Of a DNA stretch of 58,549 nucleotides, positions 9,561 through 51,747 are shown in pieces. Below the pieces are notes generated by a model that saw nothing but the letters and a program-made list of their open reading frames with translations, was not told the origin of the DNA and did not search any database. The translations under genes and the position numbers were made by a program. This DNA comes from Chloroflexota bacterium (GTDB lineage: Bacteria > Chloroflexota > Dormibacteria > CF-121): the NCBI GenBank assembly GCA_005880395.1, contig VBHQ01000161.1, positions 1-58,549 of the forward strand, in the 5' to 3' direction. Each line of letters opens with the position of its first letter. Positions within the stretch are counted from its first letter, which is position 1.

Positions 9561-9863
9561 TTGCCCGAGCCAAACGCTGAGCTTTCGTCTCGCCAGGTCG
9601 AACATGTCGCGCGACTCGCGCGGTTGGGGATTACGCCGGATGAGGTCGATCGCTACCGGGATCAGCTGCGCAAGATCCTCCACCACATCGAGGCGCTGAA
9701 CCGCGCCGATACGACGACCGTCCCGGCGACGGCACACCCGCTCGAAGAGCGAAACGTGATGCGCGACGATGTCCGCGAGGCCTGCCTGCCGGTGGAAGCG
9801 GCGCTGGAGAACGCGCCCAGCCGGGAGGACTCGTACTTCAAGGTCAAAGCGATCCAGGAATGA
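9561..9863 (+). CDS. gatC: Asp/Glu-tRNA amidotransferase subunit C
   Basis: 100 aa with a TTG start. The sequence LSSRQVEHVARLARLGITPDEVDRYRDQLRKILHHIEAL...FKV is GatC-like. Its stop overlaps the gatA start (ATGA). Confidence 0.85.
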   Translation: MPEPNAELSSRQVEHVARLARLGITPDEVDRYRDQLRKILHHIEALNRADTTTVPATAHPLEERNVMRDDVREACLPVEAALENAPSREDSYFKVKAIQE

Positions 9864-11332
9864 GGCTCTTCCAGCGCACGATTCACGATCTGCATCAAAT
9901 GCTGGTCGATCGAGAGATCTCGTCCGCTGAGCTCACCGAGTCGGTCCTGGCCCAGATCGAGGCCGTGGGCGAAAAGACCAGGGCCTACCTGCTGGTCACC
10001 CGCGACCTGGCGCTGCGCCAGGCGAAGGCAGCCGATGAGCGATTGAAGCGCAAGCGGGACGTCGCGCCGTTGACCGGCATCCCGATTGCGCTGAAGGACG
10101 TGCTCTGTGTCAAAGACGTCACCTCGACCGCCGGCTCGAAAATCCTGAAGGGATTTCTCCCGCCGTACAGTGCGACCGTCGTCGAGCGCCTGGAGGCGGA
10201 TGGCGCCGTGTTCCTCGGCAAAACCAACTGCGACGAGTTCGCGATGGGCTCGTCCAACGAGAACTCCGGCTACTGGCCGGTTCACAATCCCTGGGCGCTC
10301 GATCGGGTACCCGGCGGCTCGAGCGGCGGCTCCGCGGCCGCCGTCGCATCCGGCGAAGCGATCGCTGCCCTGGGAAGTGACACGGGTGGCTCGATCCGGC
10401 AGCCGGCGGCGCTGACCGGAATCGTCGGCATGAAACCGACCTACGGCCGCGTCAGCCGCTATGGCCTGATCGCCTTCGCGTCATCGCTGGACCAGATCGG
10501 CCCGATGACCCGCGACGTCGTCGATTGCGCGGTGCTGTTGCAGGCCGTCGCCGGCCACGACCGGCGTGACTCCACCAGTTCGCAGCGGCCGGTGCCCGAT
10601 TATCTGGCCACGCTGCGAAACGGCGTGAAAGGCATGAAGCTTGGCGTCCCGAAGGAGTACTTCGTCGCCGGCATGGAACCGGCGGTCGAGCAATCGATCC
10701 GCGACGCGATTGGCCTGTTCGAGCAGCAAGGCGCATCGATCGAGGAAGTCAGCCTGCCGCACAGCGATGTCGCGCTGCCCGCGTACTACATCATCGCGCC
10801 GGCAGAGGCCAGCTCGAACCTGGCGCGCTATGACGGCACGCGCTACGGCTTCCAGGCCGGCAGCGGGCGGAACTTGATCGACGAATACATGCAGACCCGC
10901 GAGGAGGGTTTTGGCGCCGAGGTGAAGCGTCGCATCATGCTCGGCACGTACGCGCTGAGCGCCGGCTACTACGACGCCTATTACCTGCAGGCTCAGAAAG
11001 TTCGCACCCTGATCATCGAGGATTTCAAGCGGGCGTTCACCAGGGTCGACGCGCTGCTGGGCGCCACCTCGCCGACGGTCGCCTTTCCGCTCGGCGCCAA
11101 AACCCAGGATCCGGTCGCCATGTACCTCAACGACATCATCACGATTCCCGCCAACCTGGGGAATGTCTGCGGCGTCTCGGTTCCCTGCGGGTTAGTGGAC
11201 GGTTTGCCCATCGGCCTGCAAATCATCGCGCCCGGCTTTCGCGAGGAGGTCGCGCTTCGCGTCGCGTACGCGTTCGAGGCGGCAACGGAGTTCCACAAGG
11301 CGCAATCCCCCCTGTTGGGCGCCGCGGCATGA
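9860..11332 (+). CDS. gatA: Asp/Glu-tRNA amidotransferase subunit A (amidase signature enzyme)
   Basis: 490 aa with the amidase signature [16 protein letters not shown]...[13 protein letters not shown] and the typical N-terminus with [10 protein letters not shown]. Confidence 0.95.
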
Positions 11333-12792
11333 GCGCAATTGCGACGCGGTATGAAGTCGTCGTGGGGCTCGAGGTCCATGCGCAGATCCTGACCGAGAGC
11401 AAGATGTTCTGTGGCTGCTCGACGGACTACCTCATCGCGCCGCCGAATGCGAACACCTGCCCGGTCTGCCTGGGGCTTCCCGGATCGCTGCCGGTGATCA
11501 ATCGCAAAGCCGTCGAGGCGACCATTCGCACCGCGCTCGCGCTCAACTGCGAGATCCCCGAATTTTCGAAATTCGACCGCAAGAATTATTTCTATCCCGA
11601 CCTGCCCAAGGGCTACCAGATCTCGCAATACGATCTGCCGTTTAGCCGCCGCGGATATCTCGAGTTCGACATCAAGGGCGAGACCCGACGTTGCGGCATC
11701 ACGCGCGTCCACCTCGAGGAAGACACCGGCAAGCTGCTGCACGCCGGAACGATCGACGAGGCGCAGTCCTCACTTGTCAATTTCAATCGCGCCGGCGTCC
11801 CGTTGATGGAGATCGTCTCGGAGCCAGACATGCGCAGTGCGGACGAGGCGCGTGAATACGTCATGCGGCTACGGGCGATCCTGCAGTACATCGGCGTCAA
11901 CAATGGCGACATGGAATCCGGTCAATTGCGCTGTGATGCGAACGTCTCGCTGCGGCCAGAAGGCGCAACCGAGTACGGGACGAAGGTCGAGGTCAAGAAC
12001 ATGAACTCCTTCCGGGGAATTCATCGGGCCATCCAGTACGAGATCGAGCGCCAGAGCCAGGTGCTGGATACGGGCGGGAAGCTGGTGCAGGAAACACGCG
12101 GCTGGAACGACGCCCGCGGGCTGACCGTGTCCCAGCGCACGAAGGAGTTCGCCGAGGACTATCGCTACTTCCCGGAGCCGGATCTGCCACCGCTTGACGT
12201 GAGCCGGGAGTGGGTCGACGAAATTCGTGCCACGCTGCCCGAACTGCCGGCCGCGCGGCGCGATCGCTTCATCCACGCCTACGGGTTGAGTCCCTATGAC
12301 GCCTCGCTGCTGACCTCGGCCCGACCGATGGCGGAGTACCTCGAGGACAGCGTGCGCCGCGGCGCACCGGCCAAAACCGCCGCGAACTGGATCCTGGGCG
12401 ATTTCAGCCGGTTGCTCAACGCCGACCACAAGGAGATCCAGGATTCCGCGATCGAACCGGAGCACCTGGCCCAACTTATCCAGCTCGTCGACTCGGGTGC
12501 GATCAGCGGGAAGATGGCGAAGCAGATCTTCGAAGAGATGTATCGGGCCGCTGATCCTGGGCCTGCGCTCGAGCAGGCCAAAGGCTCGTCGCAGATCAGT
12601 GGCGACGCGGAGCTCGAGCGGATCGCTAATCAAGTCATCGCCGAGAACGAGAAATCGGTCATGGACTTCAAAGCCGGGAAAGAACAAGCCCTCAGATTCT
12701 TGATCGGCCAGGGGATGAAAATCTCCAAGGGCCGGGCGAATCCAGGTCGGCTGCAAGAGGTGCTTGCATCGAAACTCGTAAATCCCAGGTGA
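11329..12792 (+). CDS. gatB: Asp/Glu-tRNA amidotransferase subunit B
   Basis: 487 aa. [38 protein letters not shown] and [10 protein letters not shown] are GatB motifs. The C-terminal YqeY-like tail is present. Confidence 0.95.
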
Positions 12793-14114
12793 CCGCATCT
12801 ATTAGTCTTCCACGCACCTTCGGCGTAGAACCACATCCACGCGCGCTGATCATGGGTTTCGACGAGGCTATTACCGGAAGGCTTCAGCGCCTATTCCCGA
12901 CATCTCGGGTTATAGACAACGTTCACGAAGTTCAGCCGCTCGAGTGGGATCTTCTTGTGACGCACAAGGACCCAGTTAATATTCCCGATCACTTATTCGT
13001 CGTGGCCGTGGCTGAGGACGCTACTCCGCGCTTTGGCTTTGCCGAAAAGAAGTTGCGGACAGGGTTGACCGTCAGCGTCGACTATGACGGCGTCTCGCGT
13101 GCCTCGGAGTTCACTATTCCCGGTGGTCTAACCCACCGCATTGATCAATTGGTTGAGCAACAGCTGCTGCCGGTTGCACGGATGTTGCAATGGAACCTGA
13201 CGCTGCGCCCGACGTTTGTCCTGCGCCCGTTCCTCGTAACCAGCGACGGAGGCGTCCTCGCCGGATCCTTTGTTCGGCTGGGCGGAAAAGCTGAGTGCTG
13301 GTGCCTACCAAGCTATGTGGACGGGCCGGAAGACTGGGTTGCTGCTGCCTTGGACGTCTGGCATGAGCAAGACGCGGTCCGGTTTCCGAAGCGAGATTGG
13401 CTGCGAGCTAATGAATGGATGACGTCCACCGAGAGGCTTCTGGGTGAGCGACTCGAAGCTCTGGAAAGCGAGCGGGGTGACCTCCTGGCTGCCTTAGCCA
13501 AGGAGGAACAACAAATTATTGTTGCCCTACAAGCCGCGCGGCAAGAGGCTGACGCCACTCATCGGACGCTGTTAACAGGACAGGGCAACGAATTGGTCAA
13601 GGCAGTATCCTCAGCGCTTTCAGCTTGTGGATTTCAAATAGTAGATATGGACCAAATCTGGCCTCAGAACAACCGCCGCGAAGACTTGCGAGCGACGGTC
13701 AAGGGCGACAGGGGCTGGACTGCCATAATCGAGGTCCGCGGCTACGAAAAAGGCGCGGCTCTGAACGACCTTGTTCGGCTGCATGGCCGATTTCGGACGA
13801 TGTTTCTGCAGGAGACTGGTCGGCTTCCGATTCGCTCGTGGTATGTCGTAAATCAATTCATCCGACAGCCACCCCGGGAGCGTCCGGCGGCACTTGCATC
13901 TCAAGCGCGAGAGCTTGACGCATACGCGGAAGACGGTGTCCTTGTCATTGACACAGTGGAGCTCTTAAAGCTGCGAGGCGCCGTGGAAACGGGCATTATC
14001 ACGGCCGAAGCTGCGCGAGATCTATTAAAGGAGCAGACGGGCCGACTCGAACTTCAGCGTGAAACGGCGCGGCACGCAAGCGGCGTGGGATCACGAGAGA
14101 AGACATCGTCGTGA
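12789..14114 (+). CDS. Hypothetical protein of foreign composition: unknown N-domain, coiled coil, nuclease-like C-terminal module
   Basis: 441-aa ORF. Its GTG overlaps the gatB stop (GTGA) and its stop overlaps the next gene's GTG (GTGA). G+C is lower than the flanks: hand counts give 30/60, 31/60 and 29/60 for lines 12901, 13561 and 13621, against 44/60 for lines 12301 and 14161. Many codons end in A or T. Residues ~213-258 are heptad-like ([41 protein letters not shown]). Residues ~262-395 read [28 protein letters not shown]...[26 protein letters not shown]...VVNQF, which resembles a restriction-endonuclease-like core. Confidence 0.8.
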
Positions 14115-15343
14115 GGCTGACGGTTGGCGAGCTTGCCCATGGCGGGGCGGCGGTCGCGCGCGTCGACGGCCGCGTCGTGTTCGTTGAGGGCGCGATCCCG
14201 GGCGAGACCGTGGAGGCCGAAGTCACCCATCGCCGCAAGGACTTCTGGCGCGCGCAGGCAATATCCGTCGTCGAGCCGGCGCAGGCGCGCGTGGAGCCAC
14301 CCTGCCCGTTCTTCAAGCTCGGCTGCGGCGGATGCCAGCTCCAACACGTCGGCTACGAGGAGCAGCTGGCGCAGAAGCGGGGCGTGCTGCACCACCAGCT
14401 CGAGCAAGCGAAGCTCGACTTTCCGTTCGATCGCATCGATGCCCTTGGCATGGATGATCCATGGCGGTACCGACTCCGCGGCGAATTTCATGTCCTGCAT
14501 CGAGATGGCACGGTCGCGTTGGGGTTCTATCGAAAGCACACCTACCGGACGCTGCCGATCGATGCCTGCCTGATTCACGCCGAGGCGATCGAGCACGCGC
14601 TCCCGGCCTTCGCGCACGCCGCCCAGGATCCGGCCGCCGAGAACGTCACCGCGCTGCAGTTCACCTGGGCGCCGGGGACCAATGACCTTCTATGGGCGCC
14701 GTATCCGCCGGGTACCGCCGATCCCGGCTTCGGCGCGCGGGCCGCCGGCTGGATCCCCGAGCTCAACCTCAACGATGACTCCATCGGCATCGACGATGCC
14801 GGGCGGCATTTCCGGGTCCGTCCCGAGGTCTTCGTCCAGGTGAATGCTCGCCAGCGCAACGTGCTTTACGAGCGCGCCGTCGCCTATTCGGCCTTGCAGC
14901 CGACCGATCAGGTGGTCGATGCCTACGCGGGAATTGGGATGCTGACCGCTCGGCTCGGCGAGCGCTCGCACCTGGTCACCGCCATCGAGGAGAGTCCCTA
15001 TGCCGTGCGGCTAGGCGAACTGAGCATGCAGCTGAACGGGGTCGACAACGTGCGCTACCGGCGTGGCAAGGTCGAGGACATCGTCCCCAGCTTGGACGAG
15101 CGGGTCGACGTCCTCGTGCTCGATCCGCCGCGGGCCGGCTGTGCCGAGGCGGCGGTGGAAGCGATGGCGAATCTGCGGCCCGAGCGCATCATCTATATCT
15201 CCTGCGAGCCCTCGACGCTGGCCCGCGACGTGAGTCGTTTTTCCGCAGGTGGACGGTATACCCTTGCGGAGGTGGCTTTCGTCGACATGTTCCCCCAGAC
15301 GTACCACATCGAAGCTGTCGCCAAACTGCAGCGGACCGCGTGA
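14111..15343 (+). CDS. TRAM-domain, Fe-S cluster 23S rRNA (uracil-5)-methyltransferase (RumA/RlmD family)
   Basis: 410 aa. The N-terminal TRAM-like segment is VGELAHGGAAVARVDGRVVFVEGAIPGETVEAEV. The Cys cluster is CPFFKLGCGGCQLQH. The SAM-binding motif is VVDAYAGIGMLT, followed by DPPRAG and a C-terminal YISCEP. Confidence 0.88.
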   Translation: MRLTVGELAHGGAAVARVDGRVVFVEGAIPGETVEAEVTHRRKDFWRAQAISVVEPAQARVEPPCPFFKLGCGGCQLQHVGYEEQLAQKRGVLHHQLEQAKLDFPFDRIDALGMDDPWRYRLRGEFHVLHRDGTVALGFYRKHTYRTLPIDACLIHAEAIEHALPAFAHAAQDPAAENVTALQFTWAPGTNDLLWAPYPPGTADPGFGARAAGWIPELNLNDDSIGIDDAGRHFRVRPEVFVQVNARQRNVLYERAVAYSALQPTDQVVDAYAGIGMLTARLGERSHLVTAIEESPYAVRLGELSMQLNGVDNVRYRRGKVEDIVPSLDERVDVLVLDPPRAGCAEAAVEAMANLRPERIIYISCEPSTLARDVSRFSAGGRYTLAEVAFVDMFPQTYHIEAVAKLQRTA

Positions 15344-18300
15344 GTTTCGTCCACCTCCACACGCATTCCGAATTCAGCCTGCTCGACGGCGCGAGCCGGA
15401 TCTCGGAGATGGTCCGCCACGCCGCCGAAACCGGGATGCCGGCGATCGCCCTCACCGATCACGGGGTGCTCTACGGCGCGATCGATCTTTACCTGCAGGC
15501 AAAAGCTGCCGGGATCAACCCGATCATCGGTCAGGAAGCCTACGTGGCGACCCGTTCGCGCCATCAGAAGGAAGGCCGCGCCGACCGGGAGCCCCATCAC
15601 CTCATCCTGCTGGTCAAGGACCTGACCGGGTATCGCAACCTGATCCAGCTCGCGAGCCTGGCGCATCTCGAGGGCTATTACTACAAACCACGGATCGATA
15701 AGGCACTCTTAGCCGAGCATGCGCAAGGCCTGATCGCGCTCTCGAGCTGCCTTGGTGGGGAGGTGGCCAGCCGGCTGCTCGAGGGTGACGAGGCCGGCGC
15801 CGAGCACGCGGCGCTCGAGTACCAGCGGATCTTCGGGGAGGACTTTTTCCTCGAGATCCAGGACCATGGGATGGAGGAGCAGGCCCGGGTGACCGAGGGC
15901 CTCGCCCGATTGTCGCAGCGTACGGGGATTCCGCTGGTCGCCACCAACGATACGCACTACACCCGCAAGGACGACGCCGAAGCGCATGACATCCTCCTCT
16001 GCCTGCAGACGGGTACGGTCGTCTCCGACACCAACCGCATGCGCTTTCACAACGACGAGTTCTATTTGAAGACGCCGGCCGAGATGGAAGAGCGCTTTCG
16101 GGACTTTCCGGAAGCCGTCGCCAACACGGTGCGGATCGCCGAGCGCTGTCACCTCGAGCTGGAGACCAAGCCGCTGCTGCCACGCTTCGAAGTTCCCGGT
16201 GGCGAAAGCGCCGAGTCGTATCTCCGGCGACTGGCCGAAGAAGGCCTCAAAGCCCGTTATCCGGAGATGAACCAGGTGATTCGCGACCGCTTTGAGATGG
16301 AGTTCGCCGTCATCAAGGACATGGGCTACGCCCCGTATTTCCTGATCGTGAGTGACTTCACCGACTTCGCGCGCAAGAACGGCGTCGCGGTCGGCCCCGG
16401 TCGCGGCTCGGCCGCGGGCAGCATCGTGTCATACGCGCTGGGCATTACCGAGCTCGACCCGCTTCACCACGGGCTGCTCTTCGAGCGGTTCCTCAATCGC
16501 GAGCGCATCTCGATGCCGGATATCGACATCGACTTCGACGATCGCAATCGCGACCGGGTCATCGACTACGTCGGCCGCCGATACGGCCAGGATCACGTCG
16601 CCCAGATCATCACCTTCGGCACGATGAAGGCGCGCGCAGTCATCCGCGATGTGGGCCGTGCGCTCGATGTTCCGCTACGCGAGGTCGATCGGCTGGCGAA
16701 GCTCGTGCCGCCGCAGCTGAACATGACGCTCGACAAGGCGATGCAGATGGTTCCCGAGCTGGCGGCGGCGGCGACCGATCCGGACTTCGCGCGGCTGCTG
16801 AAGAACGCGCGCAAGCTCGAAGGCCTCACCCGCCATGCGTCGACCCATGCGGCGGGCATCGTCATCACACCGGAACCGCTGCAGCGTTATGTCCCGTTGC
16901 AGAACGCCATCACCCGCGGAGAGCGCAACGGCCAGGAAAAGCGGGCAGTGATGACCCAGTACGAGATGAACGCGGTCCAGAAGATCGGCCTGCTCAAGAT
17001 GGACTTCCTGGGCCTGCGCAATCTTTCGATCATCGTAGACGCGCTGAAGAATCTGGAGCAGACCCGCGGGCTCAAACTGGATCTCACGCAGATCCCGTGG
17101 GACGACCCGGCGACCTTCAGGCTCTTGCAGGCGGGCGATACCAACGGCGTCTTCCAGCTCGAGTCGGCCGGGCTGCGACGGCTGCTCCAGGACATGCGGC
17201 CGACCGCCTTCGAGGACATCATCGCGGCGAACGGGCTATTCCGTCCGGGACCGCTTGAGGGCGGCCTGGTCGACCAGTACGTGAAGTGCAAGAACGGCGA
17301 GCAGGAGATCGTCTATCCGCTACCCGAGCTGGAGCCCATCCTCAAAGAGACCTACGGGGTCATCGTGTACCAGGAGCAGGTGATGCAGATCGCCTCCAGG
17401 CTCGCCGGCTTCAGCCTCGGCGAAGCCGACATCCTGCGCGCCGCTATGGGCAAGAAGAAGAAAGACGAGATGGCGCGGATGCGAACCAAGTTCATCACCG
17501 GCGCGGTGCAGCGCGGCGTCACCGAGCCGAAGGCGACCGAGATCTTCGACCTGATGGCGTTCTTCGCCGGCTACGGCTTCAACAAGTCGCACAGCGCCGC
17601 CTACGCCGTCGTCTCCTACCAGACCGCCTACCTGAAAGCCAACTACCCGCTCGAATACCTGGCCGCGCTGCTCAACAACGAGGGCGGCAACTATGACCGC
17701 GTCGCGGCCGCCGTGCTCGATTGCCATGCCCGCGAGATCGAGGTGCTCCCGCCGGACGTTAACGGCTCGGAGGCAGGCTTCTCGGTGCAGGACGGCAAGA
17801 TTCGCTACGGACTGGCCGTGATCAAGAACGTCGGGACCCATGCCATCGAGTTACTGCTCAAGGAGCGCCGCGCGAAGGGCCCATTCAAGTCGCTACTCGA
17901 CATGACCGTGCGCGTCGACCCGCGGGAGCTGAACAAGCGCGTCCTGGAAAGTTTGATCAGGTCCGGCGCGACCGACTGTCTCGGCGAGCGCGGGCAGCTG
18001 CTGGCAAGCATCGATCGCATCAGCGATCGCGCCGCGCAGATCATTGACGAGCGCGAAAGCGGGCAGACCTCGCTGTTCGGGCTGCTGCCGGAATCGGACG
18101 AGCTCGATGATGCGAACGCGGGCTTGATCGCTGGGGTCCCGCCGATGCCGGATGAGGAGCGGCTCAAGGGCGAGAAAGAGCTGCTCGGCCTGTATCTGTC
18201 GGATCATCCGCTCAAGCGGATCGAGCAGGAACTCCACGCCAAAGTCGACACCTACGTCAACCAGGTCACCGCCGACATGGAGGACTTCGAAGTTCGCATC

Positions 18301-18906
18301 GGCGGCGTGATCAAAGGCGTCCGGCCGGTCGTCACCAAGACGGGCAAGGCGATGGCCTTCGTTCAGCTCGAGGATCTGACGTCGACGATCGAAGTCATCG
18401 TCTTTCCGAAGGTGTTCGACGAGCGCCGGCATCTGCTCCTGTCAGACACGGTGGTGATCGTGCGCGGCAAGGTCGATGCGCGAGCCGGGTCGGGCGACGA
18501 CGACGATCGCGCCGATGTCCCCAAAGTCATCGCCGACGAGATCATGGCATTCGACGATGCCGGCCACGAGAGCTGGGTCCGAAATCAGGTCGTGCATCTC
18601 GATGTCCCGGCGGAGGCGACGCCGGAGCAGATGGCGGCGCTCCAGGACATCCTCGCTCGCTGCCCGGGACCGGACCGCGTCGTGATGCACCTGCATCGCG
18701 CCGACCAGGTCGTCGACATGGACCTTGGCGACAAATTCCGGGTGCAGGGCGGTGGCCTGGCGGGCGATCGGGCCCAGCGCGAGATCGACGGCCTGTTCCT
18801 CAGGCCGGTGTGGCGGATCGAGGTCATCCGGCGCCGCGCGCCCGAGCGTCAGGCTAACGGCAGCCGCCAGCCTCGAACGCTGGTCGGTTCCTCAGCCGGC
18901 GGCTAG
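15340..18906 (+). CDS. dnaE: DNA polymerase III alpha subunit
   Basis: 1188 aa. PHP domain FVHLHTHSEFSLLDG. Palm and fingers motifs GPGRGSAAGS, PDIDIDF and KMDFLGL. OB-fold C-terminal region. Confidence 0.97.
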   Translation: MSFVHLHTHSEFSLLDGASRISEMVRHAAETGMPAIALTDHGVLYGAIDLYLQAKAAGINPIIGQEAYVATRSRHQKEGRADREPHHLILLVKDLTGYRNLIQLASLAHLEGYYYKPRIDKALLAEHAQGLIALSSCLGGEVASRLLEGDEAGAEHAALEYQRIFGEDFFLEIQDHGMEEQARVTEGLARLSQRTGIPLVATNDTHYTRKDDAEAHDILLCLQTGTVVSDTNRMRFHNDEFYLKTPAEMEERFRDFPEAVANTVRIAERCHLELETKPLLPRFEVPGGESAESYLRRLAEEGLKARYPEMNQVIRDRFEMEFAVIKDMGYAPYFLIVSDFTDFARKNGVAVGPGRGSAAGSIVSYALGITELDPLHHGLLFERFLNRERISMPDIDIDFDDRNRDRVIDYVGRRYGQDHVAQIITFGTMKARAVIRDVGRALDVPLREVDRLAKLVPPQLNMTLDKAMQMVPELAAAATDPDFARLLKNARKLEGLTRHASTHAAGIVITPEPLQRYVPLQNAITRGERNGQEKRAVMTQYEMNAVQKIGLLKMDFLGLRNLSIIVDALKNLEQTRGLKLDLTQIPWDDPATFRLLQAGDTNGVFQLESAGLRRLLQDMRPTAFEDIIAANGLFRPGPLEGGLVDQYVKCKNGEQEIVYPLPELEPILKETYGVIVYQEQVMQIASRLAGFSLGEADILRAAMGKKKKDEMARMRTKFITGAVQRGVTEPKATEIFDLMAFFAGYGFNKSHSAAYAVVSYQTAYLKANYPLEYLAALLNNEGGNYDRVAAAVLDCHAREIEVLPPDVNGSEAGFSVQDGKIRYGLAVIKNVGTHAIELLLKERRAKGPFKSLLDMTVRVDPRELNKRVLESLIRSGATDCLGERGQLLASIDRISDRAAQIIDERESGQTSLFGLLPESDELDDANAGLIAGVPPMPDEERLKGEKELLGLYLSDHPLKRIEQELHAKVDTYVNQVTADMEDFEVRIGGVIKGVRPVVTKTGKAMAFVQLEDLTSTIEVIVFPKVFDERRHLLLSDTVVIVRGKVDARAGSGDDDDRADVPKVIADEIMAFDDAGHESWVRNQVVHLDVPAEATPEQMAALQDILARCPGPDRVVMHLHRADQVVDMDLGDKFRVQGGGLAGDRAQREIDGLFLRPVWRIEVIRRRAPERQANGSRQPRTLVGSSAGG

Positions 18907-24772: not shown

Positions 24773-25688
24773 CTAGTCCCGAGCAGGTTCCTTGACGGTC
24801 TGCTCCAGGATGTCGCTGATCACGCGGTCGGTCGTGATACCGTCGGCTTCGGCTTCGAACTGCAGAAAGACGCGATGACGCAGCGCGGCGGGGGCGACGG
24901 CGTTGACATCGTCGAAGGCGACATTGAAGCGGCCCTCCAGGAGGGCCCGGACTTTGCCGGCGAGCACCAGGGTCTGCATGCCACGCGGGCTCGCGCCCCA
25001 GCGGACGTACCGCTTGACGCTCTCGACCGCAGTCCGATCAGGATGGGAGGCGCTGATCACGCGCGCCGCGTAGCGGAGAACGTGCTCGGCGATCGGCACT
25101 TCGCGGACGACGCGTTGCGCGGCGAGCATCTCGGCGGCGTCGGCCACCGGCTTCAAGCGCGGCGCCGACTCACCCGTCGTGCGCCGGGCGATCTCGAGCA
25201 GGTCCGGCTCACTGGGAAACGGCACGAGGACCTTGAAGAAGAAGCGATCCAGCTGGGCCTCGGGTAGGGGATAGGTCCCTTCGAGCTCGATCGGGTTCTG
25301 GGTCGCCATGACGAAGAATGGCGACGGAAGCGGCCGTGTCTGGGTGCCGACCGTCACCGTGCGCTCCTGCATCGCCTCGAGGAGCGCGCTCTGGGTCTTT
25401 GGCGTCGCGCGGTTGATCTCATCGGCGAGCACCAGGTTGGCAAAGATGGGGCCGGCCTGATAGCGGAATTCACGGCGTCCCTCGTCCTCGACGATGACGT
25501 TCGTTCCCACGATGTCGGCCGGCATCAGGTCAGGGGTGAACTGAATGCGCGCAAAACTCATCGAGAGCGTCTGGCCAAGCGAGCGGACGGTTTTTCTGGC
25601 CGACGATCAGCCGGGCGAGCTCGGTCTCCAGGCTTTGGGCCAGGTCGGTGACCCGGGCGGCGTCCACGCGCGGTTCTTCGGCGATCAT
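24773..25688 (-). pseudogene. MoxR-family AAA+ ATPase; frame broken near 25590-25600 and most of the Walker A block missing
   Basis: The ATG at 25688-25686 has a GGAGGA upstream and overlaps the upstream stop as ATGA. It gives MIAEEPRVDAARVTDLAQSLETELARLIVGQ and then runs out of frame. Another frame resumes with ..RKTVRSLGQTLSMSFARIQFTPDLMPADIVG and continues through Walker B (LVLADEINRATPKTQSALLEAMQE) to the stop. About 25 residues that normally read ...LLEG-x-PG-x-x (just before KT) are absent. Confidence 0.8.
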
Positions 25689-27289
25689 GATCCTCCCTGA
25701 TTTGGCTCGCCAAGCTGCGAGAAGTACTGATGGATGAGGTCCCGTTCACTGCCTGGAATCAGGCTCTGGTCGGTCGCGTCCTGGGCGGCCTGTTGATAGC
25801 CCTGGATGACCTGGTTATAGGGAGTCAGCGGAACGTCCTGGCCGGGGCCAAGCGGCGTCGGGTCGTTCTGTGTCTGACCGGGCACCGGCTGCCCGGGCAC
25901 GTAGACGCGCTCGGTACTGCTGGTCCCCGAGCCGCTGCCGCTCCCCGACCCCTGCGAACCGGTCCCGCCGGTGCCGCCGCTTCCGCTGCCATTCCCTGAG
26001 CCATTGCCGGACCCATTCCCATTCCCGTTGCCGTTCCCGCTGCCGTTCCCGCTGCCGCTGCCGTTGCCAGTGCCGTTGCCAGTGCCATTGCCGCTGCCAC
26101 TGGCATTGGCGCCGGCGCTCCCGCCGGCCGAGGCGCCCGGGATCGCGTTCGGCTGCCCGCCCTGGCCGCTCGCATCGCGGTCGGCCTGCGAGGCCAGCTC
26201 CTGGCGGGCGGCCTCCAGCCCGTTGATGGCGGAGGCGACGGCCTGGTCCGTGTTCTCCTGCTGCTGCAACGAGTCGAGCTGACTCGCGGCGTCATTCAGC
26301 GCCTGCTGCGCGGTGGCGGTGTCGCCGCTCTGCAGGGCCGATGAGGCCTGGCTCAGCGAATCACGCATCTGGCTGTTCTGCGCCTGTTGCGACGCCTTGC
26401 CGAGCGCCTGCGCGAGCTGCTGCCGGTCCTGCGGCGACAGGTTCTGCAGTTGCGATCCCAGGTTGCGAACCGCCTGCGCGCCCTGTGCCGGGCTCGAGCT
26501 GATCGCTTGCGCCGCGTTCCGGCCGGCGGCCGTTCCGCTGAGCGCATTTGCCAGGTTCTGCGCGCTGCTGCTCAGGGCGGGCGTCCCCGGATCGCTCAAC
26601 CGCTGCAGCTGCTGTTGCGCCGGCGTGATCGACTCGAGGGCCTGGCGCGGGCCAGTCGCCTCGCGGATTTTGGTCTGGGTGTCCTGGAGGATCTTCTGCA
26701 CCTGGGCGTCCTTCGGCGAAGGACTGCTGGTGGTCGCAACCTTCTTTTGTGCGGTGCTCAGCGCCTTCGCGGCGCGCGCCTGGCTTGCCTGGTCGGCCCG
26801 CCGCTGGGCCAGCACCTGGTCCATCGGGTTCGGCAGGACGGAAAGGCCGAGCGCAAAAATCGCGAGGATCGCTATCAGCGAGGCCTCGCCCCGGTTGACC
26901 CGGATCGGGAAGGCACTCGCCAGCTTCGCGCTTTCGGCGCGGCGCAGCGCGTCTTGCCTGAGCGCTGGATCGAGCGGGCCGCTTTCATGGCGACGCTCCC
27001 ACGCGGTCGATAGCCGCTCTTTGAGCCCCAGTCGAAGATCCGCGATCGCCATCAGGACGCCGGCGGTGGGCCGGCGGACGAGCCAGGCGAGACCGGCAAG
27101 GAGCGCCGCGGCCGCGATCCCGATCAGCGCCAGGAAGGCCCGTCGGTCGAATGGGATCACTCGGGCGACGAGCAGGACGCCGGCCACCCAGACGAGCGCT
27201 CCGGCCAGGGCATGGACGCCGTAGCGCGCGGCCCGCGTCCGGGACGCCGCGCGGCGGAGCTCCCGAACGACCTGGTCCAGCGAGCTCAT
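25685..27289 (-). CDS. Membrane protein with a long Q/A/S-rich helical region and a Gly/Asn/Ser/Thr repeat tract
   Basis: 534 aa. TM helices lie near residues 30-75 and 140-160. Long ...AQQ...LQ... helical segments follow, then a ~70-aa GSGNGT-type tract and a conserved-looking tail VYVPGQP...LIHQYFSQLGE. It is joined to both neighbours by 4-nt overlaps. Confidence 0.75.
   Translation of the reverse strand: MSSLDQVVRELRRAASRTRAARYGVHALAGALVWVAGVLLVARVIPFDRRAFLALIGIAAAALLAGLAWLVRRPTAGVLMAIADLRLGLKERLSTAWERRHESGPLDPALRQDALRRAESAKLASAFPIRVNRGEASLIAILAIFALGLSVLPNPMDQVLAQRRADQASQARAAKALSTAQKKVATTSSPSPKDAQVQKILQDTQTKIREATGPRQALESITPAQQQLQRLSDPGTPALSSSAQNLANALSGTAAGRNAAQAISSSPAQGAQAVRNLGSQLQNLSPQDRQQLAQALGKASQQAQNSQMRDSLSQASSALQSGDTATAQQALNDAASQLDSLQQQENTDQAVASAINGLEAARQELASQADRDASGQGGQPNAIPGASAGGSAGANASGSGNGTGNGTGNGSGSGNGSGNGNGNGNGSGNGSGNGSGSGGTGGTGSQGSGSGSGSGTSSTERVYVPGQPVPGQTQNDPTPLGPGQDVPLTPYNQVIQGYQQAAQDATDQSLIPGSERDLIHQYFSQLGEPNQGGS
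25924..26126 (-). repeat. Coding microsatellite-like tract (GGN/AAY/AGY hexamer iterations) encoding (G-N/S/T)n
   Basis: On the plus strand there are runs of gccgtt/gccatt/gccgct/gccagt units, for example ccattcccattcccgttgccgttcccgctgccgttcccgctgccgctgccgttgccagtgccgttgccagtgccattgccgctgcc. The translation is ..SGSGNGTGNGTGNGSGSGNGSGNGNGNGNGSGNGSGNGSGSGG.. Confidence 0.9.
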
Positions 27290-28233: not shown

Positions 28234-29156
28234 CCGATGCCCTCGGTGGTCACCTTCAGGAACGCGGCTTCCAGGCCTCCTTCGAGCTGGGTGAACCCGG
28301 ACACCTTGATACCGCCCGCGATCAGGGCCTGCAGAATGCCGGCGGCGGTCGCCTCATCGCCCTCGAAGGCGGCTTCCAGGGAGCCGTTGCTGACGTCGAC
28401 CTCGCGCACCGACGCCAAGCCCTTGAGCAGGGCGATCGCTTCCTCGCGCTGTCCGAGCACCGTGATGCGCAGCCGGCGGCCGGCGGTCAGCTGCCGAATG
28501 ACGTCCTGAACCCGGCCGGTTGCCCGGAGCTGCCCGTGGTCGATGATGCCGATCATGGTGCAGAGCTCGGTGAGCTCCGGCAGGATATGGCTCGAGATGA
28601 CGATCGTCTTGCCCATCTGCTGCAGCTCTTTGAGGATCTCGCGCATTTCGACCCGCGCCCTCGGGTCCAGCCCCGAAGCGGGCTCATCAAGCAGCAGGAC
28701 GGCCGGATCATGAACCAGCGAGCGGGCCAGGCAGAGGCGCTGCTTCATGCCACGGGACAGCGTGTCCACCGACTGGTCACGCCGGTCCGCCAGTCCCACC
28801 AGCTCCAGCAGATCGTCGGCAATCTTCCGGCGCCGCAGCTTCGGCTGCCGGTAGCAGGCGGCGTAGAAATCCAGATACTCGCCGGCCGTGAGCTGGTCGT
28901 AGACGCCGAAGAAGTCCGGCATGTAGCCCAAGCGGTCGTGAACGCGGTCGGGATGCTGGACGACGTCTGCGCCATCGATGAAGGCGCGACCGGCCGTCGG
29001 GTCGAGGAGGGCCGCCAGAATGCGAAGCGTCGTCGTTTTTCCCGCCCCGTTCGGACCGACGAAGCCGAAGATCTCGCCCTTCGGCACCTCGAATGACACC
29101 GCGTCAAGCGCCCGGCGGTGCCCGTAGATCTTGGTCAGCCCTTCGACGGCGATCAT
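28230..29156 (-). CDS. ABC transporter ATP-binding protein
   Basis: The start is taken at the internal ATG (MIAVEGLTKIYGHRRALDAV...), which overlaps the upstream stop as ATGA. Walker A GPNGAGKTT, signature LSRGMKQRL and Walker B LLLDEPASGLD are present. The 56 codons upstream in the ORF track read as noise. Confidence 0.92.
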   Translation of the reverse strand: MIAVEGLTKIYGHRRALDAVSFEVPKGEIFGFVGPNGAGKTTTLRILAALLDPTAGRAFIDGADVVQHPDRVHDRLGYMPDFFGVYDQLTAGEYLDFYAACYRQPKLRRRKIADDLLELVGLADRRDQSVDTLSRGMKQRLCLARSLVHDPAVLLLDEPASGLDPRARVEMREILKELQQMGKTIVISSHILPELTELCTMIGIIDHGQLRATGRVQDVIRQLTAGRRLRITVLGQREEAIALLKGLASVREVDVSNGSLEAAFEGDEATAAGILQALIAGGIKVSGFTQLEGGLEAAFLKVTTEGIG

Positions 29157-31570
29157 TTGACCGTCCCCGAAACCGTCAACGAACCGGCCAGGAAGCCGCC
29201 GTTGGTGGTATTGATACGCAGCCGGATGAGTCCGGTGCTGGGGTTGACCGCAGCGTCCGGCAGCGTCGTGATGCCGTTGTCCTGGTAGTTGATGTTCGTC
29301 CAGGTCGAGGCGGTCCAGTCCCAAGCCTGTCCCTGGATGCCCGGGCTCGTCGAGGCGGAGCCGCTCGGTCCGACGAACTTGGCACTGTAAGGGTTCTGTG
29401 AGGTGACCGACACCCCGCTCAGCTGCGCCCCTGGTGCCAGCGGCGCAGCGAACTCAAAGGTGACGCTGCCGTTTTGCAGCACGAGCATGCCGGGAGGTCC
29501 ATTTCCCTGGCTGTCACCCACGACATCAACGATGCGCGAGTTGACCACACCGGCCGGCAACGAGCCGGTTCCAATCTGGTCGACCGGAAGCGACAGCACC
29601 ACGGCGGAAAGTGCCGTCGATCGCGGTTGGCTGCCATCGATGGTCACCGGCTGGAAGGTTTGGTGGGTCCAGGCGACCAGCGTCGGATTGACGTAGTTGG
29701 CCGAGCCTTTGAAGCTCTGCCCGGTCGGCAGCAGTGAGAGCACCTGTGACTTGGTGGTCGATTCACGGTCCGCGGTCGATCCGTTTGAGGGGCCGCCGTA
29801 CTGACTGTTGGCATAGATGCGGGTGAAGAGCGGCTGGCCGAAGGGATTGGCCGGCTTCGGCGCCAGGCTGACACTGGTCGTTCCGCCCGGCTTCAGTGCG
29901 CGGAAGATCTCAAAATTGTCGCCGGCGATCAGGACCGCATCGCTGAAGGTCAGGTTCGAATGGTTTTCGATCGTGCCGATGAGCGTGCCGTTGACCAGCC
30001 GGAGCTGCGCGGTCAGCTGCGGCGCGCTGGTCATGCCCTCGGTGGCAAAGCCCCCGAGCGAAAAGGCCGTCATTCCGCTGAGCGTCACCGCGTTGCTGGC
30101 GAGGTCCACCTGCATGCCGGTGTTGCCACTGCTCGGGCCGTAGCTGTTCACGATCGGGCTGATCAGGAGCCGCTCTCCGCCGACCGTCGCGACATAGTCG
30201 CCGCGGCCAGGGGGAATCACGCCCGTATAGATCTCCTGGTAGGCGCGGTCCCATCCGGGCTGCGCGTGCACGATTGCGACCTGGTTGATCTGCACCGACC
30301 GGCCCTTGGTGATGAGGCCGGTGCCATAGGCACCTCCGGCGGCCAGCAGGGCGATCAGTGGAATCGTGACCCAGGCGAGCGCCCGCCGGTGGATCGCGCC
30401 GAGAACGAAGTAGTTCACCGGGCCGACGAGCACCACGTAGAGGATCACAAGCGCCGCGGTCAGTTGCAGCGACGGCAGGTTCAGGCCGGGAAGGTTGCCA
30501 AGCACCGGCGTCAGGGATCCGCTCTTGGTGGCGACCGACGATTGACTGCCGGCCGGGAAGGGACCCCCCGGCCCGCCGCCCAGATACGTCACATTCTGGC
30601 CGCCGCCTCCCGCGTCGAAGACCGAGCGGGCCATCACTTGCCGTAAGACCGTATGGGTATTGCTGCCCACGGCAACGGGCTGCTGATTCCAGTCGAACGT
30701 GGCCAGCGTGACCGTGCCCTGGCCCACGGAGCGATCGATCAACAGGGGCCGCGCGTCCGGGCCGAGCCAGACGTGGCCGCCGGTGAGCTGGCCGGACGCG
30801 ATCTCGACCGCGGACGCGCCGAGCGCCGTCGTGTCGATCACGTTGGTGCCCGTGACGGCCATCGGCAGGATGGACGGTGGCAGCCCGGCGAGCGTCTTGT
30901 GCCATGCGGCGCCCGTTCCGATCAGGAGATTCCCGCCGGCATTGACGAAATCCGTGATTGCCGCTCGCTGTGCCGCCGTGAGACTGTCCGTGGCGAAATC
31001 GTCGATCGCCAGGATGTCGAACGCGCGCAGTGGTACGGCGGCGTCGGGTAGGTCCTCGCCTCGCAGATGCACCACCCGCGCCGCGACGCTGCCGGGATGG
31101 ATCGCGGCAAAATCATCGAGCGTCGTCGACTGGTCGGAGAGGACGCCGATCAGATAGCCGGTGCTGCCCCCCGAAACGGAGTCCCGGGAGGCGATGACGT
31201 GGCCGTTCTGGACGATGCGGGCATTGACCGTCGCCGCCGTATTGTCGATCTCGACGAAGATGCGCACGCGCTTGCTCGCCCCACTGGCAAGGCTGATTGG
31301 CTGCCGATAAAGCGTTAGTCCGGTGACGCCCGGCTGGGCGTTGAGTGACTCCTGGACTTGCAGGACTCCATCGATGGAGACGCCGCTGTTCCGGGCATCG
31401 ATGGTGACCGGCATCCACTGGCCCGCTTTGATCACGTCCTCGTAGCCCGCGTGCACTGTCAGGGCGACCCCGCCGGCCGCGTCAGCGGTAACAGCCAGCA
31501 GGGGCAAGGCCAGCGCGGCGACGATCCCGGCCAGGAAACAGCGAGCGGGCAGGCGGAAGGAGGGCCGCAT
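29153..31570 (-). CDS. Large exported / membrane-spanning protein of unknown function, first gene of the Bat-like cluster
   Basis: 805 aa. Signal-peptide-like N-terminus (FLAGIVAALALPLLAVTADA). Amidotransferase-like stretch (LAIDDFATDSL...FVNAGGNLLIGTG). Central TM helices (LTAALVILYVVLVGPVNYFVLG, WVTIPLIALLAAGGAYG). Beta-rich C-terminal half. Confidence 0.75.
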   Translation of the reverse strand: MRPSFRLPARCFLAGIVAALALPLLAVTADAAGGVALTVHAGYEDVIKAGQWMPVTIDARNSGVSIDGVLQVQESLNAQPGVTGLTLYRQPISLASGASKRVRIFVEIDNTAATVNARIVQNGHVIASRDSVSGGSTGYLIGVLSDQSTTLDDFAAIHPGSVAARVVHLRGEDLPDAAVPLRAFDILAIDDFATDSLTAAQRAAITDFVNAGGNLLIGTGAAWHKTLAGLPPSILPMAVTGTNVIDTTALGASAVEIASGQLTGGHVWLGPDARPLLIDRSVGQGTVTLATFDWNQQPVAVGSNTHTVLRQVMARSVFDAGGGGQNVTYLGGGPGGPFPAGSQSSVATKSGSLTPVLGNLPGLNLPSLQLTAALVILYVVLVGPVNYFVLGAIHRRALAWVTIPLIALLAAGGAYGTGLITKGRSVQINQVAIVHAQPGWDRAYQEIYTGVIPPGRGDYVATVGGERLLISPIVNSYGPSSGNTGMQVDLASNAVTLSGMTAFSLGGFATEGMTSAPQLTAQLRLVNGTLIGTIENHSNLTFSDAVLIAGDNFEIFRALKPGGTTSVSLAPKPANPFGQPLFTRIYANSQYGGPSNGSTADRESTTKSQVLSLLPTGQSFKGSANYVNPTLVAWTHQTFQPVTIDGSQPRSTALSAVVLSLPVDQIGTGSLPAGVVNSRIVDVVGDSQGNGPPGMLVLQNGSVTFEFAAPLAPGAQLSGVSVTSQNPYSAKFVGPSGSASTSPGIQGQAWDWTASTWTNINYQDNGITTLPDAAVNPSTGLIRLRINTTNGGFLAGSLTVSGTVK

Positions 31571-31641: not shown

Positions 31642-31724
31642 TGCCGGAGGAGGGACTCGAACCCACACGGACTTACGCCCAGGCGCTTTTGAGGCGCCCT
31701 CGTCTACCATTCCGACACTCCGGC
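31642..31724 (-). tRNA. tRNA-Leu (anticodon CAA), class II with long variable arm
   Basis: The reverse complement is GCCGGAGTGTCGGAATGGTAGACGAGGGCGCCTCAAAAGCGCCTGGGCGTAAGTCCGTGTGGGTTCGAGTCCCTCCTCCGGCA. The 7-bp acceptor stem pairs. The anticodon stem is GGCGC/GCGCC with loop CTCAAAA. T-loop TTCGAGT, with one U-U mismatch in the T-stem. CCA is not encoded. Confidence 0.88.
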
Positions 31725-38748: not shown

Positions 38749-39119
38749 GCGACGTAGTCGTCGGCTCCCACCTTGAGATAGACGCCCATGTCGCAGGGTA
38801 GTGGAGCGCCGGAATACCTGTGCCGAACACTGTCCGGAAGTGGCCTGGCGAAGATGGGCTTGCCGTCCGCGGTGTTGCCAACCTGCCGGAACGCGAAGAC
38901 GCCAAAGGCATTGCCGATGGCCTCGATCTGGGCTCGGTTCACGTGGGGACCCGGCAAGTACGTCCGATCGCAGTAGGGGATCCGCGTTGGCAGCGCCCTG
39001 GGATCCCAGGTCCCAAAGGCGGCCCGGCTGTAGACCGAGCGGCCGAAGAGCAGGGCGACAGCGACGAAGAGGGTCGCGGTCACGACCGCCGTTAGTCCGG
39101 GCCACAACCAGCGCCGCAT
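38724..39119 (-). CDS. Small membrane-anchored hypothetical protein
   Basis: 131 aa. N-terminal anchor [24 protein letters not shown] followed by non-repetitive sequence of ordinary composition. It converges on the DUF3267 gene and overlaps it by 25 nt. Confidence 0.55.
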
Positions 39120-39211
39120 ACCCGTACAACGGCGCCCGCCCGCAACCCGTTCCGCTCGCCAGCCGGCCTGGACCCTGTAAATTTCCGGCTTTCCAAACCT
39201 ACAATTGGGGC

Positions 39212-44022: not shown

Positions 44023-44026
44023 GGTC

Positions 44027-45898: not shown

Positions 45899-45910
45899 GA
45901 TAATCGTCCC

Positions 45911-46114
45911 GTGGAGCACCCGGTCAACCGCTGCTCGTTTTGCAACCGGAAGCAAAGCGAAGTCCGCCGGCTGATCGCCGGCCCCGGCGTCTACATCTGC
46001 AACCAGTGCGTCGCCCTCTGCAACGAGGTGCTGGCTCAGGAGTTGCCCCCCGACCAGCCAGGGGCCCCCAAGCCTGGGGGTGGCTGGATCGGCAAGGTCT
46101 TCAGCCACCGCTAG
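45911..46114 (+). CDS. Stand-alone ClpX-type C4 zinc-finger protein
   Basis: 67 aa with a GTG start 13 nt after the uvrC stop. [34 protein letters not shown] closely parallels the ClpX N-terminal zinc-binding domain (CSFCGK...KLIAGP.VYICDECV.LC). No AAA+ module follows. Confidence 0.8.
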
Positions 46115-49608: not shown

Positions 49609-50530
<922 letters not shown>

Positions 50531-50556
50531 GCGCCCACGCCACGACGAGCGGCGGG

Positions 50557-51747
50557 CTGCAGAAGGCCACCATCCGCGACGTCGACGTGGCGGGACGGCG
50601 GGTCCTGGTTCGAGTCGACTTCAACGTCCCGCTCGAGGACGGTCGCATCCTCGACGACACCCGCATCCGCGAGGCGGTGCCCACCATCAAGGACCTGGTC
50701 GAGCGCAATGCGCGGGTCATCCTCATGACCCACCTCGGGCGGCCCGACGGTGAGGTCGATGAGAAGGCGCGAACCACTCCGCTGGCCGAGCGCCTCAGCG
50801 AGCTGATCGGCAGGCCGGTCGAGCACCTCGATGATTGCATTGGCGCGCAGGTGGAGCAGGCCGTAGGGGCGATGCATGACGGCGACATCATCATGCTCGA
50901 GAACGTCCGTTTTCATTCCGGCGAGACGAAGAATGACCCCGAGTTCGCCAGGCAGCTGGCCTCGCTCGGCGACCTGTACGTCAACGACGCGTTTGGCACG
51001 GCCCACCGCGCACACGCCTCGACTGCCGGCATCGCGCATTACCTGCCGGCGGTGGCCGGGCTCCTGATGGAGCGCGAGATCCGTACCCTGGGCAAGGTCA
51101 TGTCCGACCCGCCGCATCCACTGGTCGCGATCATCGGGGGCTCGAAGATTTCGACAAAAATCGGCGTGCTGCGGAGCCTGCTGGAGCGGGTCGATCGGCT
51201 CTGTGTCGGCGGCGCGATGGCCTGCACCTTCTTGAAGGCCAAAGGGCTCTCGATGGGGCGCTCGCTCGTCGAAGAAGACCAGCTCGAGGTGGCGCGCTCG
51301 CTCCTCTCGGGCGGCTCCGGGCGCGCCGGTGGCCTGGTGTTGCCGCTCGACGCCGTGGTTGCCGAGGACGCGCGGGCCGGGGTCAAGACCGAGACCGTCG
51401 CCATCGATTCGGTGCCGGCGGACATGAAGGTGCTCGACGTTGGTCCAATGACCGTCGAGCGCTTCTTGCAGACGTGTGACGGCGCGGCGGCGGTGGTGTG
51501 GAATGGCCCGCTGGGCGTCTATGAGGTGCCGCCGTTCGACCATGGAACCGATGCGCTGGCGCACGGCCTGGCTGGGAGCGACGCCGAGACGATCATCGGT
51601 GGCGGCGACCTGGTGGCGGCGCTCGAAAAGCAGCATCTGGCGGAAAGGATGTCGTTCGTCTCGACCGGCGGCGGCGCGACGCTCGAGTTCCTGGAAGGGA
51701 AGACGCTCCCTGGGATCGCCGCACTACAGGACAGGCGGCCCGGATGA
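50557..51747 (+). CDS. pgk: Phosphoglycerate kinase (start unresolved; CTG 50557 or GTG 50587)
   Basis: [11 protein letters not shown], the hinge and the C-terminal GGGD...[15 protein letters not shown] motifs are present. The conserved N-terminal [11 protein letters not shown] lies upstream of the first canonical start (GTG 50587). The only in-frame candidate there is CTG 50557. Confidence 0.9.

Follow-up and report, generated by a model that had tools for sequence, protein, structure and literature searches.

A foreign gene for a predicted three-part nuclease-fold protein within the gatCAB–rRNA methyltransferase–dnaE operon of a soil Chloroflexota bacterium

Restriction enzymes in which a modular sensor and a nuclease are joined in one solitary protein, without a methyltransferase, form an established class in which new sensor domains are to be expected (PMC12191111). 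Here, we describe an open reading frame (ORF) encoding 441 amino acids at positions 12789-14114 of a 58,549-nucleotide (nt) stretch of contig VBHQ01000161.1, referred to below as the window. The window derives from a soil Chloroflexota metagenome-assembled genome (MAG; GatA accessions TMD39159.1 and TME45834.1). The ORF lies between gatB and an RNA methyltransferase gene, and is very probably a mobile accessory gene for a protein of nuclease fold.

The cleavage domain of the type IIS enzyme FokI, and likewise the Nt.BspD6I / R.BspD6I small subunit, has the same D...(D/E)xK catalytic layout as the ORF product. Both FokI and the ORF product have the nuclease as a module of its own, joined to an N-terminal module of another kind. 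Cleavage by FokI requires dimerisation. Unlike FokI, the ORF product has no DNA-recognition domain of the FokI type, and the third catalytic residue is Arg in most members of its family. The archaeal Holliday-junction resolvase Hjc shares the minimal PD-(D/E)xK core, the strand order and the catalytic positions [Foldseek probability 0.94-0.98, template-modelling (TM) score 0.42-0.49 normalised to Hjc]. Hjc is a single-domain housekeeping dimer of about 125 residues, whereas the ORF product is accessory and is longer by about 255 residues at the N-terminus and by additional helices at the C-terminus. With the class-I glutamine amidotransferase (GATase) domains of PabA, GMP synthase, the GH42 trimerisation domain and lin1909 the N-terminal part of about 200 residues shares the fold alone.

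Homing endonucleases of the PD-(D/E)xK fold are known (I-Ssp6803I), as are free-standing homing genes between conserved genes (seg/mob of phage T4). The ORF resembles the latter in being one nuclease-fold gene between conserved genes that are left undisrupted, in its presence/absence pattern and in its discordant history. Unlike seg/mob, it resides on a cellular chromosome and its family is not tied to one target site.

Like type IV and modification-dependent enzymes, END nucleases, Shedu SduA and Shield ShdA (with its RmuC domain), the ORF product is a single polypeptide with no partner gene. Solitary defence nucleases and the ORF family have in common a variable, putatively sensing module beside a conserved nuclease domain and a patchy distribution (PMC12191111); some members of the ORF family also lie near defence genes in variable regions. 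No sequence relationship to those nucleases is seen (0 matches in PADLOC). END nucleases were considered as the same family and rejected, having a different make-up (PLD plus an inactive EndoIII; PMC12191111). The literature searched gave no description of a GATase-like fold as the sensor of a solitary nuclease, and searches on the architecture and on chromosomal free-standing homing genes likewise returned no prior description. The combination of a GATase-like domain, a helix of fixed length and a FokI-like nuclease thus appears to be new with respect to that literature. The general category, a solitary sensor–nuclease fusion, and its horizontal acquisition would not surprise a specialist.

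Predicted structure of the ORF product

One public gene call (P0001, 420 residues) begins at Met22 of the ORF. The N-terminus conserved in the family (G..PHPR.L..GF) is encoded 5' of Met22 in the window and in both orthologues found at the same junction (on contigs L001 and L006), and the 441-residue GTG start was therefore retained. Both orthologue starts also overlap the gatB stop (GTGA in L001, ATGA in L006). A 137-sequence family alignment was used for conservation figures and as input to AlphaFold2. The whole-protein model, with a mean predicted local distance difference test (pLDDT) score of 94.5, has three parts. The ORF and its predicted parts are as follows.

12789-14114, + strand: inserted ORF, 441 residues, GTG start (from the ORF listing and the sequence)
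12789-13424, + strand: N-terminal domain, residues 1-212; alpha/beta, predicted class-I GATase-like fold, acidic
13425-13556, + strand: single 44-residue helix, residues 213-256, in the AlphaFold2 model; conserved 3-4 hydrophobic spacing
13557-14048, + strand: predicted PD-(D/E)xK nuclease domain, residues 257-420, closest to the FokI cleavage domain (model and Foldseek)
13650-13652, + strand: codon of D288, invariant (137/137), just past beta1
13680-13685, + strand: codons of E298 (99% conserved) and D299 (100%), where beta2 begins; the 'D' of PD-(D/E)xK
13731-13739, + strand: codons of E315-V316-R317 in beta3, the '(D/E)xK' motif; E 99%, V 96%, position 317 R in 67% and K in 29%
13851-13853, + strand: codon of N355, 97% conserved, at the end of beta4
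14049-14114, + strand: C-terminal tail, residues 421-441, lineage-specific, ending ...REKTSS before the stop; 68% gaps in the family, pLDDT 63-80

The C-terminal domain modelled alone gave a pLDDT of 94.9 and a predicted TM score of 0.89. Its core consists of helix 266-279, strands 283-286, 300-304 and 307-318, helix 325-343 and strand 349-355, modelled at a pLDDT of about 97, with further helices after the core. The best solved match in a Foldseek search was the FokI cleavage domain (1fok_A; E = 1.2e-4, probability 1.00, TM 0.50); the alignment covers 174 of 185 columns, including the trailing helices, at 13% identity. The next matches were AF1548, Hjc, EcoO109I, Nt.BspD6I / R.BspD6I and the nuclease domains of DdmD, Can2, Upx and Cap4. 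Every match that Foldseek scored at a probability of about 0.9 or higher has a PD-(D/E)xK fold; the few rows of low probability below them include viral polymerase entries and a YqgP N-terminal domain. Matches to viral Mrr and PD-(D/E)xK models were likewise obtained. In the nuclease core 24 of 100 positions are at least 90% conserved. P362 and R365 are conserved in all 137 members, and position 317 is R or K in 96% of them combined. The occurrence of K at 317 in about a third of the family shows that a positive charge is needed there. By predicted fold, motif and structural similarity, the ORF product belongs to the PD-(D/E)xK superfamily.

The alpha/beta N-domain spans residues ~18-194 of the model. 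Its best Foldseek match was ADC synthase (8hx9; E = 3.2e-4), followed by the GH42 trimerisation domain (5xb7), lin1909 (3fij), PabA (6qur) and GMP synthase (7mo6). The domain has an isoelectric point of 5.5. No nucleophile Cys is conserved among the 137 members: C170 occurs in 45% and C172 in 21%, and no Cys reaches 50%, so that the Cys-His-Glu triad of class-I amidotransferases is not conserved. The domain is for this reason not regarded as a catalytic amidotransferase, and is almost certainly non-catalytic as judged from the alignment. Variability in the family is greatest across residues 1-150, where 1 position in 150 is conserved at 90% or more and the loops at 63-86 and 134-144 are prone to insertions. 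A conserved hinge rich in Trp (A158, R163, P174, W183, W191, F199, P200, W204 and W210) follows at residues 151-212. Hydrophobic positions 218, 222, 225, 232/233, 236, 243 and 247 of the helix are kept across the family, and the distance between W210 and R259 is constant in 135 of 137 members.

An initial annotation of the window, made from the sequence and its ORF translations, had described a three-part protein with an N-terminal region of no assignable family, a heptad coiled coil of about 45 residues and a nuclease-like C-terminal module with the element order of PD-(D/E)xK folds. The model bears this out: the coiled coil corresponds to the one 44-residue helix with 3-4 spacing, and the C-terminal module shows an alpha-beta-beta-beta-alpha-beta topology that matches FokI, Hjc and BspD6I. 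The structure prediction and Foldseek search proposed there did return a nuclease-like core. The same annotation had pointed to R in place of the usual K and to D299 and E315 as acidic residues. Both acidic residues are almost invariant in the family, and the substitution is widespread but not universal. Beyond that annotation, the N-terminal region can now be assigned a predicted GATase-like fold.

The family and its genomic contexts

No match to the ORF protein was found in Pfam, NCBIfam, PADLOC or PHROGs. At E ≤ 1, Pfam gave a chance match to DUF3933 only, with no FokI family and no GATase. A sequence profile search of the PDB at E ≤ 10 returned coiled-coil noise only, with no related PDB sequence and no FokI sequence. 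The ORF product lies outside every curated sequence family and known defence system searched, and the profile searches suggested in the initial annotation (Pfam and PADLOC models) gave no confident match to a known housekeeping family. A word-indexed homologue search, run with the single sequence and with a 10-sequence profile, returned the same 10 proteins. The family became visible only when 1.84 billion cluster representatives (clustered at 50% identity) were searched exhaustively with phmmer, which yielded 942 representatives at E ≤ 1e-3 and 377 at E ≤ 1e-30. Members have a typical length of about 430 residues, nearly all falling within 410-480, and match end to end; the named ones are all annotated 'hypothetical protein'.

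A pattern-based scan of 185,579 species genomes gave 91 loci, mostly in Actinomycetota (Nocardioides, Streptomyces, Mycobacterium, Arthrobacter and Microbacteriaceae) and in Chloroflexota/Dehalococcoidia, with a few in other phyla. None of the 91 loci is at a gatB junction. Neighbourhoods were analysed in the 77 loci with a family member, with all ORFs within ±6 kb clustered. No conserved partner was found; even the most widely shared cluster of neighbours is limited to 7 of the 77 loci, and its position varies. Clustering of small flanking ORFs at E = 1e-3 revealed no family, the only candidates being out-of-frame shadows in closely related loci, and an adjacent methyltransferase is not a pattern of the loci. 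The G+C content at third codon positions (GC3) of family members is below that of their own flanks at nearly every locus, with a mean difference of -0.107; the difference is below -0.10 in 32 of 77 loci and above +0.05 in two. The 149 neighbour proteins include, as raw counts, genes of mobile-element type (five serine resolvases, TrwC and TraG) and genes of defence type (three SIR2, three DUF4145, IetA, PDC-S15/S36, ThsA, capP, nSTAND and a type II methyltransferase, MTase_II).

The closest relative outside the junction clade (44-46% identity) was found in the Chloroflexota MAG BP_619 (L011, 8416-11296). It lies 212 nt 3' of a co-directional SIR2_2 / Aga_SIR2-like gene, and SIR2-like neighbours occur in three scanned loci. 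Metagenomic relatives adjoin an HTH_17 protein, a ParB_N protein or a PhdYeFM antitoxin. Judged from these contexts, the family is one of solitary, mobile accessory genes of variable regions.

In one metagenomic locus (L003, 7831-14332) the family member P0006 stands between an upstream 578-residue ParB_N protein and a downstream 973-residue protein without a Pfam match, near a PhdYeFM antitoxin. This arrangement is absent from the other loci; it is possibly a multi-gene variant, or simply a case of a neighbouring island gene.

The gatB–methyltransferase junction

The ORF is embedded in an operon of conserved genes, identified with Pfam.

9561-9863: gatC
9860-11332: gatA
11329-12792, + strand: gatB, left-flank host gene; tail altered, three codons longer than in empty-site relatives
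12789-12792, + strand: left junction, GTGA; the ORF start overlaps the gatB stop
14111-14114, + strand: right junction, GTGA; the ORF stop TGA overlaps the GTG start of the methyltransferase gene
14111-15343, + strand: TRAM and U5 RNA methyltransferase gene (RlmD-like), right-flank host gene
15340-18906: dnaE

The ORF has a G+C content of 0.575 and a GC3 of 0.597, against GC3 values of 0.80-0.85 for gatA, gatB, the methyltransferase gene and dnaE. Compared with 26 other window genes (mean GC3 0.830, standard deviation 0.029), its GC3 has z = -8.0 and an index modelled on the codon adaptation index has z = -7.7. The step is sharp at both ends: in 50-codon windows, GC3 drops at the left end from 0.74-0.76 to 0.52, and at the right end it climbs from 0.56 to 0.86.

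The last ~300 nt of gatB in the window (12454-12792) have a GC3 of 0.74-0.76, compared with 0.78-0.90 in the rest of the gene and 0.84-0.96 in the same part of the relative L091. A short tract brought in with the insert by recombination could account for the low GC3, or the 3' end of gatB may simply be more variable. A tract from a lower-GC donor reaching into gatB was considered and set aside as not conclusive, the gatB 3' end being more variable in all comparisons.

Contigs with an empty site were retrieved by a metagenome scan with the downstream methyltransferase. Ten contigs were found in which gatB abuts the methyltransferase gene with a gap of 3-10 nt. Identities to the window over full-length genes are 81-89% for gatA, 82-85% for gatB and 83-87% for dnaE. 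L097 is more distant (dnaE 77%), and L097, L099 and L100 hold short gatB ends only (53-70% identical). Eight of the contigs were inspected at base level: gatB ends in ...LLREKI(S/L) before the stop, with either a TAGTG overlap or TAA plus 1 nt.

The gene occupies this junction in only three lineages, namely the window, L001/L002 (P0003) and L006/L007 (P0002). In occupied alleles gatB carries a diverged copy of its tail that is three codons longer (...KLVNPR in the window, ...RLSQNG in L001), and the ORF start overlaps the new stop. The ORFs end in ...REKTSS, ...SEKS or ...SERN, which resemble the original gatB end ...REKIS of the empty sites. The ORF tail also keeps the GAGAA(G/A)A motif 5' of the methyltransferase start and the ancestral stop/start overlap of the gatB end. 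As all three occupied alleles have this architecture, one original insertion in the last gatB codons is indicated, possibly with a short target duplication. A direct-repeat search at the junction gave nothing significant, and the left tail copy is similar at the protein level only; the junction is consistent with a target-site duplication. No tRNA, integrase or flanking repeat was found at the ORF flanks, and no promoter- or terminator-like site above chance. That the ORF depends on signals of the operon can reasonably be inferred from its two 4-nt overlaps and the absence of such sites.

The second codon of the methyltransferase gene is Arg (AGG or CGC) in all three occupied alleles (window 14111-14119, L001 11257-11265, L006 1542-1550), and Gln or Glu in the empty-site relatives, including L091 and L092, to which L001 and L006 are otherwise closest. 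A short stretch of the right flank, a few bases long, may have come along with the insert, as this difference hints; in the window, Arg is partly dictated by the GTGA overlap.

Trees of dnaE, the methyltransferase gene and gatA plus gatB place L001 and L006 together with L091 and L092, which have empty sites, and put the window on a separate branch. The underlying nucleotide identities are given below.

dnaE: L001 versus L091/L092 87.8%; L001 versus window 81.4%
Methyltransferase gene: L001 versus L091/L092 82.8-84.3%; L001 versus window 76.2%
gatA plus gatB: L001 versus L091/L092 85.2-85.7%; L001 versus window 79.7%

L001 is closer to L091 than to the window with a bootstrap value of 1.0 in all three flank regions. 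The carriers are thus not monophyletic, and at least two gain or loss events must have occurred at the same site. The ORFs of the window and L001 are 63.5% identical at the nucleotide level, with a proportion of synonymous differences (pS) of 0.74, which is saturated, compared with 0.52-0.59 in the flanks. Between L001 and L006 the synonymous divergence (dS) of the ORF (0.34) is lower than that of the methyltransferase gene (0.64). Because ORF and flank divergences disagree, the ORF and its flanks do not share one common history. The ratio of nonsynonymous divergence (dN) to dS of the ORF is 0.24 between L001 and L006 and about 0.09 between the window and L001, with dN 2-4 times that of the flanks; as estimated from these comparisons, the ORF is under purifying selection. 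The simplest account of the alignments and trees is that the gene was inserted once and that the occupied allele then spread and was also lost, in both cases through homologous recombination in the conserved flanks; homing would be more exotic.

The initial annotation had placed a horizontally acquired single-gene module, with 4-nt start/stop overlaps at both ends, inside a gatCAB–rRNA methyltransferase–dnaE operon. The overlaps and the identities of the neighbours hold. Its hand counts of G+C were reproduced exactly (35, 30, 31 and 29 of 60 in the ORF against 44 and 44 of 60 outside), and the atypical use of A/T-ending codons is confirmed by the GC3 and codon-index comparison with the rest of the window. 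Acquisition by horizontal transfer is supported by this deviation, by presence and absence among equally close relatives and by the non-monophyly of carriers. The junction comparison that it called for found the gene in some relatives and not in others, rather than throughout the clade. That the ORF is a single-gene module and not a classical island also stands, with no conserved neighbour in the 77 loci and no integrase, tRNA or repeats beside it.

In distant relatives (L104-L127; methyltransferase 43-46% identical) the gap between gatB and the methyltransferase gene is 1.2-2.4 kb, sometimes with a second gene inside. The gap gene is a conserved PHP-family-like gene of about 260 codons (MxLPPDLHVHTEWSYD...AFTDHADF) with host-like GC3 (for example L114 3189-3980 and L106 3201-3980). 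The idea of an insertion hotspot at this junction was rejected on these grounds; a conserved gene of host-like composition in the gap indicates that gene content at the junction differs between clades for ordinary reasons.

Some further features were recorded elsewhere in the window. Two tRNA-Leu genes (CAA and CAG) lie on the minus strand at 31642-31724 and 57123-57208, far from the ORF; Rfam at its gathering threshold reports only that at 57123-57208. The uvrA gene, between uvrB (38801-41272) and uvrC (44027-45898), looks split by a frameshift (41265-44022), either through an assembly error or as a pseudogene: an ORF at 41265-43328 (687 residues) holds UvrA_inter, UvrA_DNA-bind and the start of ABC_tran, and an overlapping + strand ORF in another frame at 42937-44022 (361 residues) holds the end of ABC_tran. 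A longer minus-strand ORF (43880-46108) is a shadow of uvrC. Five long ORFs of host-like composition (251-1756, 25685-27289, 29153-31570, 50203-51636 and 52395-53927) have no Pfam match at E ≤ 1e-5 (or 1e-3).

Proposed function and alternative explanations

We lean towards an accessory, mobile, stand-alone three-part nuclease, probably defensive, inserted in the last gatB codons and expressed by coupling to the operon. On the narrower question of whether the ORF encodes a defence effector, the evidence is about evenly balanced. A variable N-domain (1/150) beside a conserved nuclease core (24/100) would be the pattern of a sensor joined to an effector. The GATase-like N-domain may act as a sensor or regulator that detects a cue associated with an invader. 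As this domain is acidic and no known DNA reader, the cue is as likely to be a protein or a small molecule as DNA. The rigid helix of fixed length would couple the domains, mediate dimerisation or both; dimerisation through the helix is proposed on the precedent of FokI, for which a pair of cleavage domains is required. If the ORF product works like FokI and like solitary sensor–nuclease defence proteins, two nuclease domains would then be brought together and cut DNA, with predicted Mg2+-dependent cleavage through D299, E315 and K/R317, together with E298 and D288. The outcome would be a single-gene anti-phage or anti-plasmid system without a methyltransferase partner.

On insertion at the last gatB codons, gatB would have gained its three-codon-longer tail, with the ORF reading into the old gatB end. 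As stop/start overlaps are kept on both sides, the ORF is proposed to be transcribed with gatCAB-rlmD-dnaE and translated by coupling; expression in this genome would then rely on read-through transcription and translational coupling within the operon. Gain or loss of the occupied allele has since taken place at least twice among related lineages, most simply via homologous recombination in the conserved flanks.

Several observations weigh against a defensive nuclease. The FokI fold match is remote (13% identity, TM 0.50), and 67% of members have R rather than K at the third catalytic position, an uncommon state among active PD-(D/E)xK enzymes. Besides being acidic, the N-domain does not have the fold of a known reader of nucleic acids or of modifications. 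PADLOC-DB v2 gave 0 matches at E ≤ 10. Many of the 149 neighbours are ordinary metabolic genes, and the apparent enrichment in defence genes near family members is one of raw counts. It would also be odd for a potentially toxic effector to be a nuclease co-expressed constitutively with an essential operon.

Recurrent occupation of one exact site, and an insertion that is harmless and preserves coupling, would also be explained by a selfish homing-type endonuclease gene whose product cleaves empty gatB/methyltransferase junctions in related genomes, with repair of the break then copying the gene in. The same site is indeed occupied or empty in related genomes, and it is identical in three non-monophyletic lineages that require at least two events; the history of the ORF is discordant with that of its flanks, and both neighbours and their translational coupling are preserved. 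We nevertheless consider homing unlikely. The other family members (77 genome and 4 metagenome loci) lie in unrelated variable contexts and show no recurrent cognate target, only three closely related alleles being at gatB/rlmD. The common junction architecture of these three alleles fits one insertion followed by allele exchange. The FokI cleavage domain, which has the nearest fold, cuts without sequence specificity, and the N-domain is acidic. A self-propagating chromosomal homing element that invades the gatB/rlmD junction and rebuilds the overlaps at no cost to the host is a long shot, as is the parallel idea of a new single-protein immune receptor whose GATase-like domain senses a phage-derived ligand.

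The surroundings of the ORF invite a housekeeping explanation, namely an accessory DNA-repair or recombination nuclease (an Hjc-like resolvase or an end-processing enzyme) recruited to a region rich in replication and repair genes and co-regulated with dnaE. The window is rich in such genes (uvrD/pcrA, ligA, dnaE, polA and uvrB/A/C), Hjc resolvases are among the fold matches and the ORF is under purifying selection. Equally close relatives have the same operon without the ORF, however, the composition of the family is foreign, its distribution is patchy and associated with mobile elements, and the other loci show no linkage to repair genes; a repair role is about as improbable as homing. Marginally less probable still is an inactive or non-nuclease derivative with a DNA-binding or scaffolding role, or a toxin-like addiction gene retained because its loss disturbs the operon. 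The replacement of the canonical K by R in two thirds of the family would fit the former, and the cost of imprecise deletion, which would harm gatB itself or translation of the methyltransferase, would fit the latter. Conservation of 99-100% at the acidic metal ligands, and of 96% for K and R taken together, is nonetheless as seen in active sites under selection. The loci share no antitoxin-like partner, and clean empty sites are common.

The ORF represents a sizeable unannotated family (942 clusters, mainly in Actinomycetota and Chloroflexota) with a confident predicted structure and a clear catalytic motif. If the family is defensive, it would add a new type of sensor to the single-protein sensor–nuclease systems, and its compact FokI-like cleavage module could be of interest for engineering. 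Were the homing explanation true, the family of ~940 clusters would instead be a reservoir of operon-junction invaders. The matching empty alleles make the mechanism of gain and loss, by recombination or homing, directly testable. The junction itself provides a clean natural case of a foreign gene accommodated in an essential, translationally coupled operon without damage.

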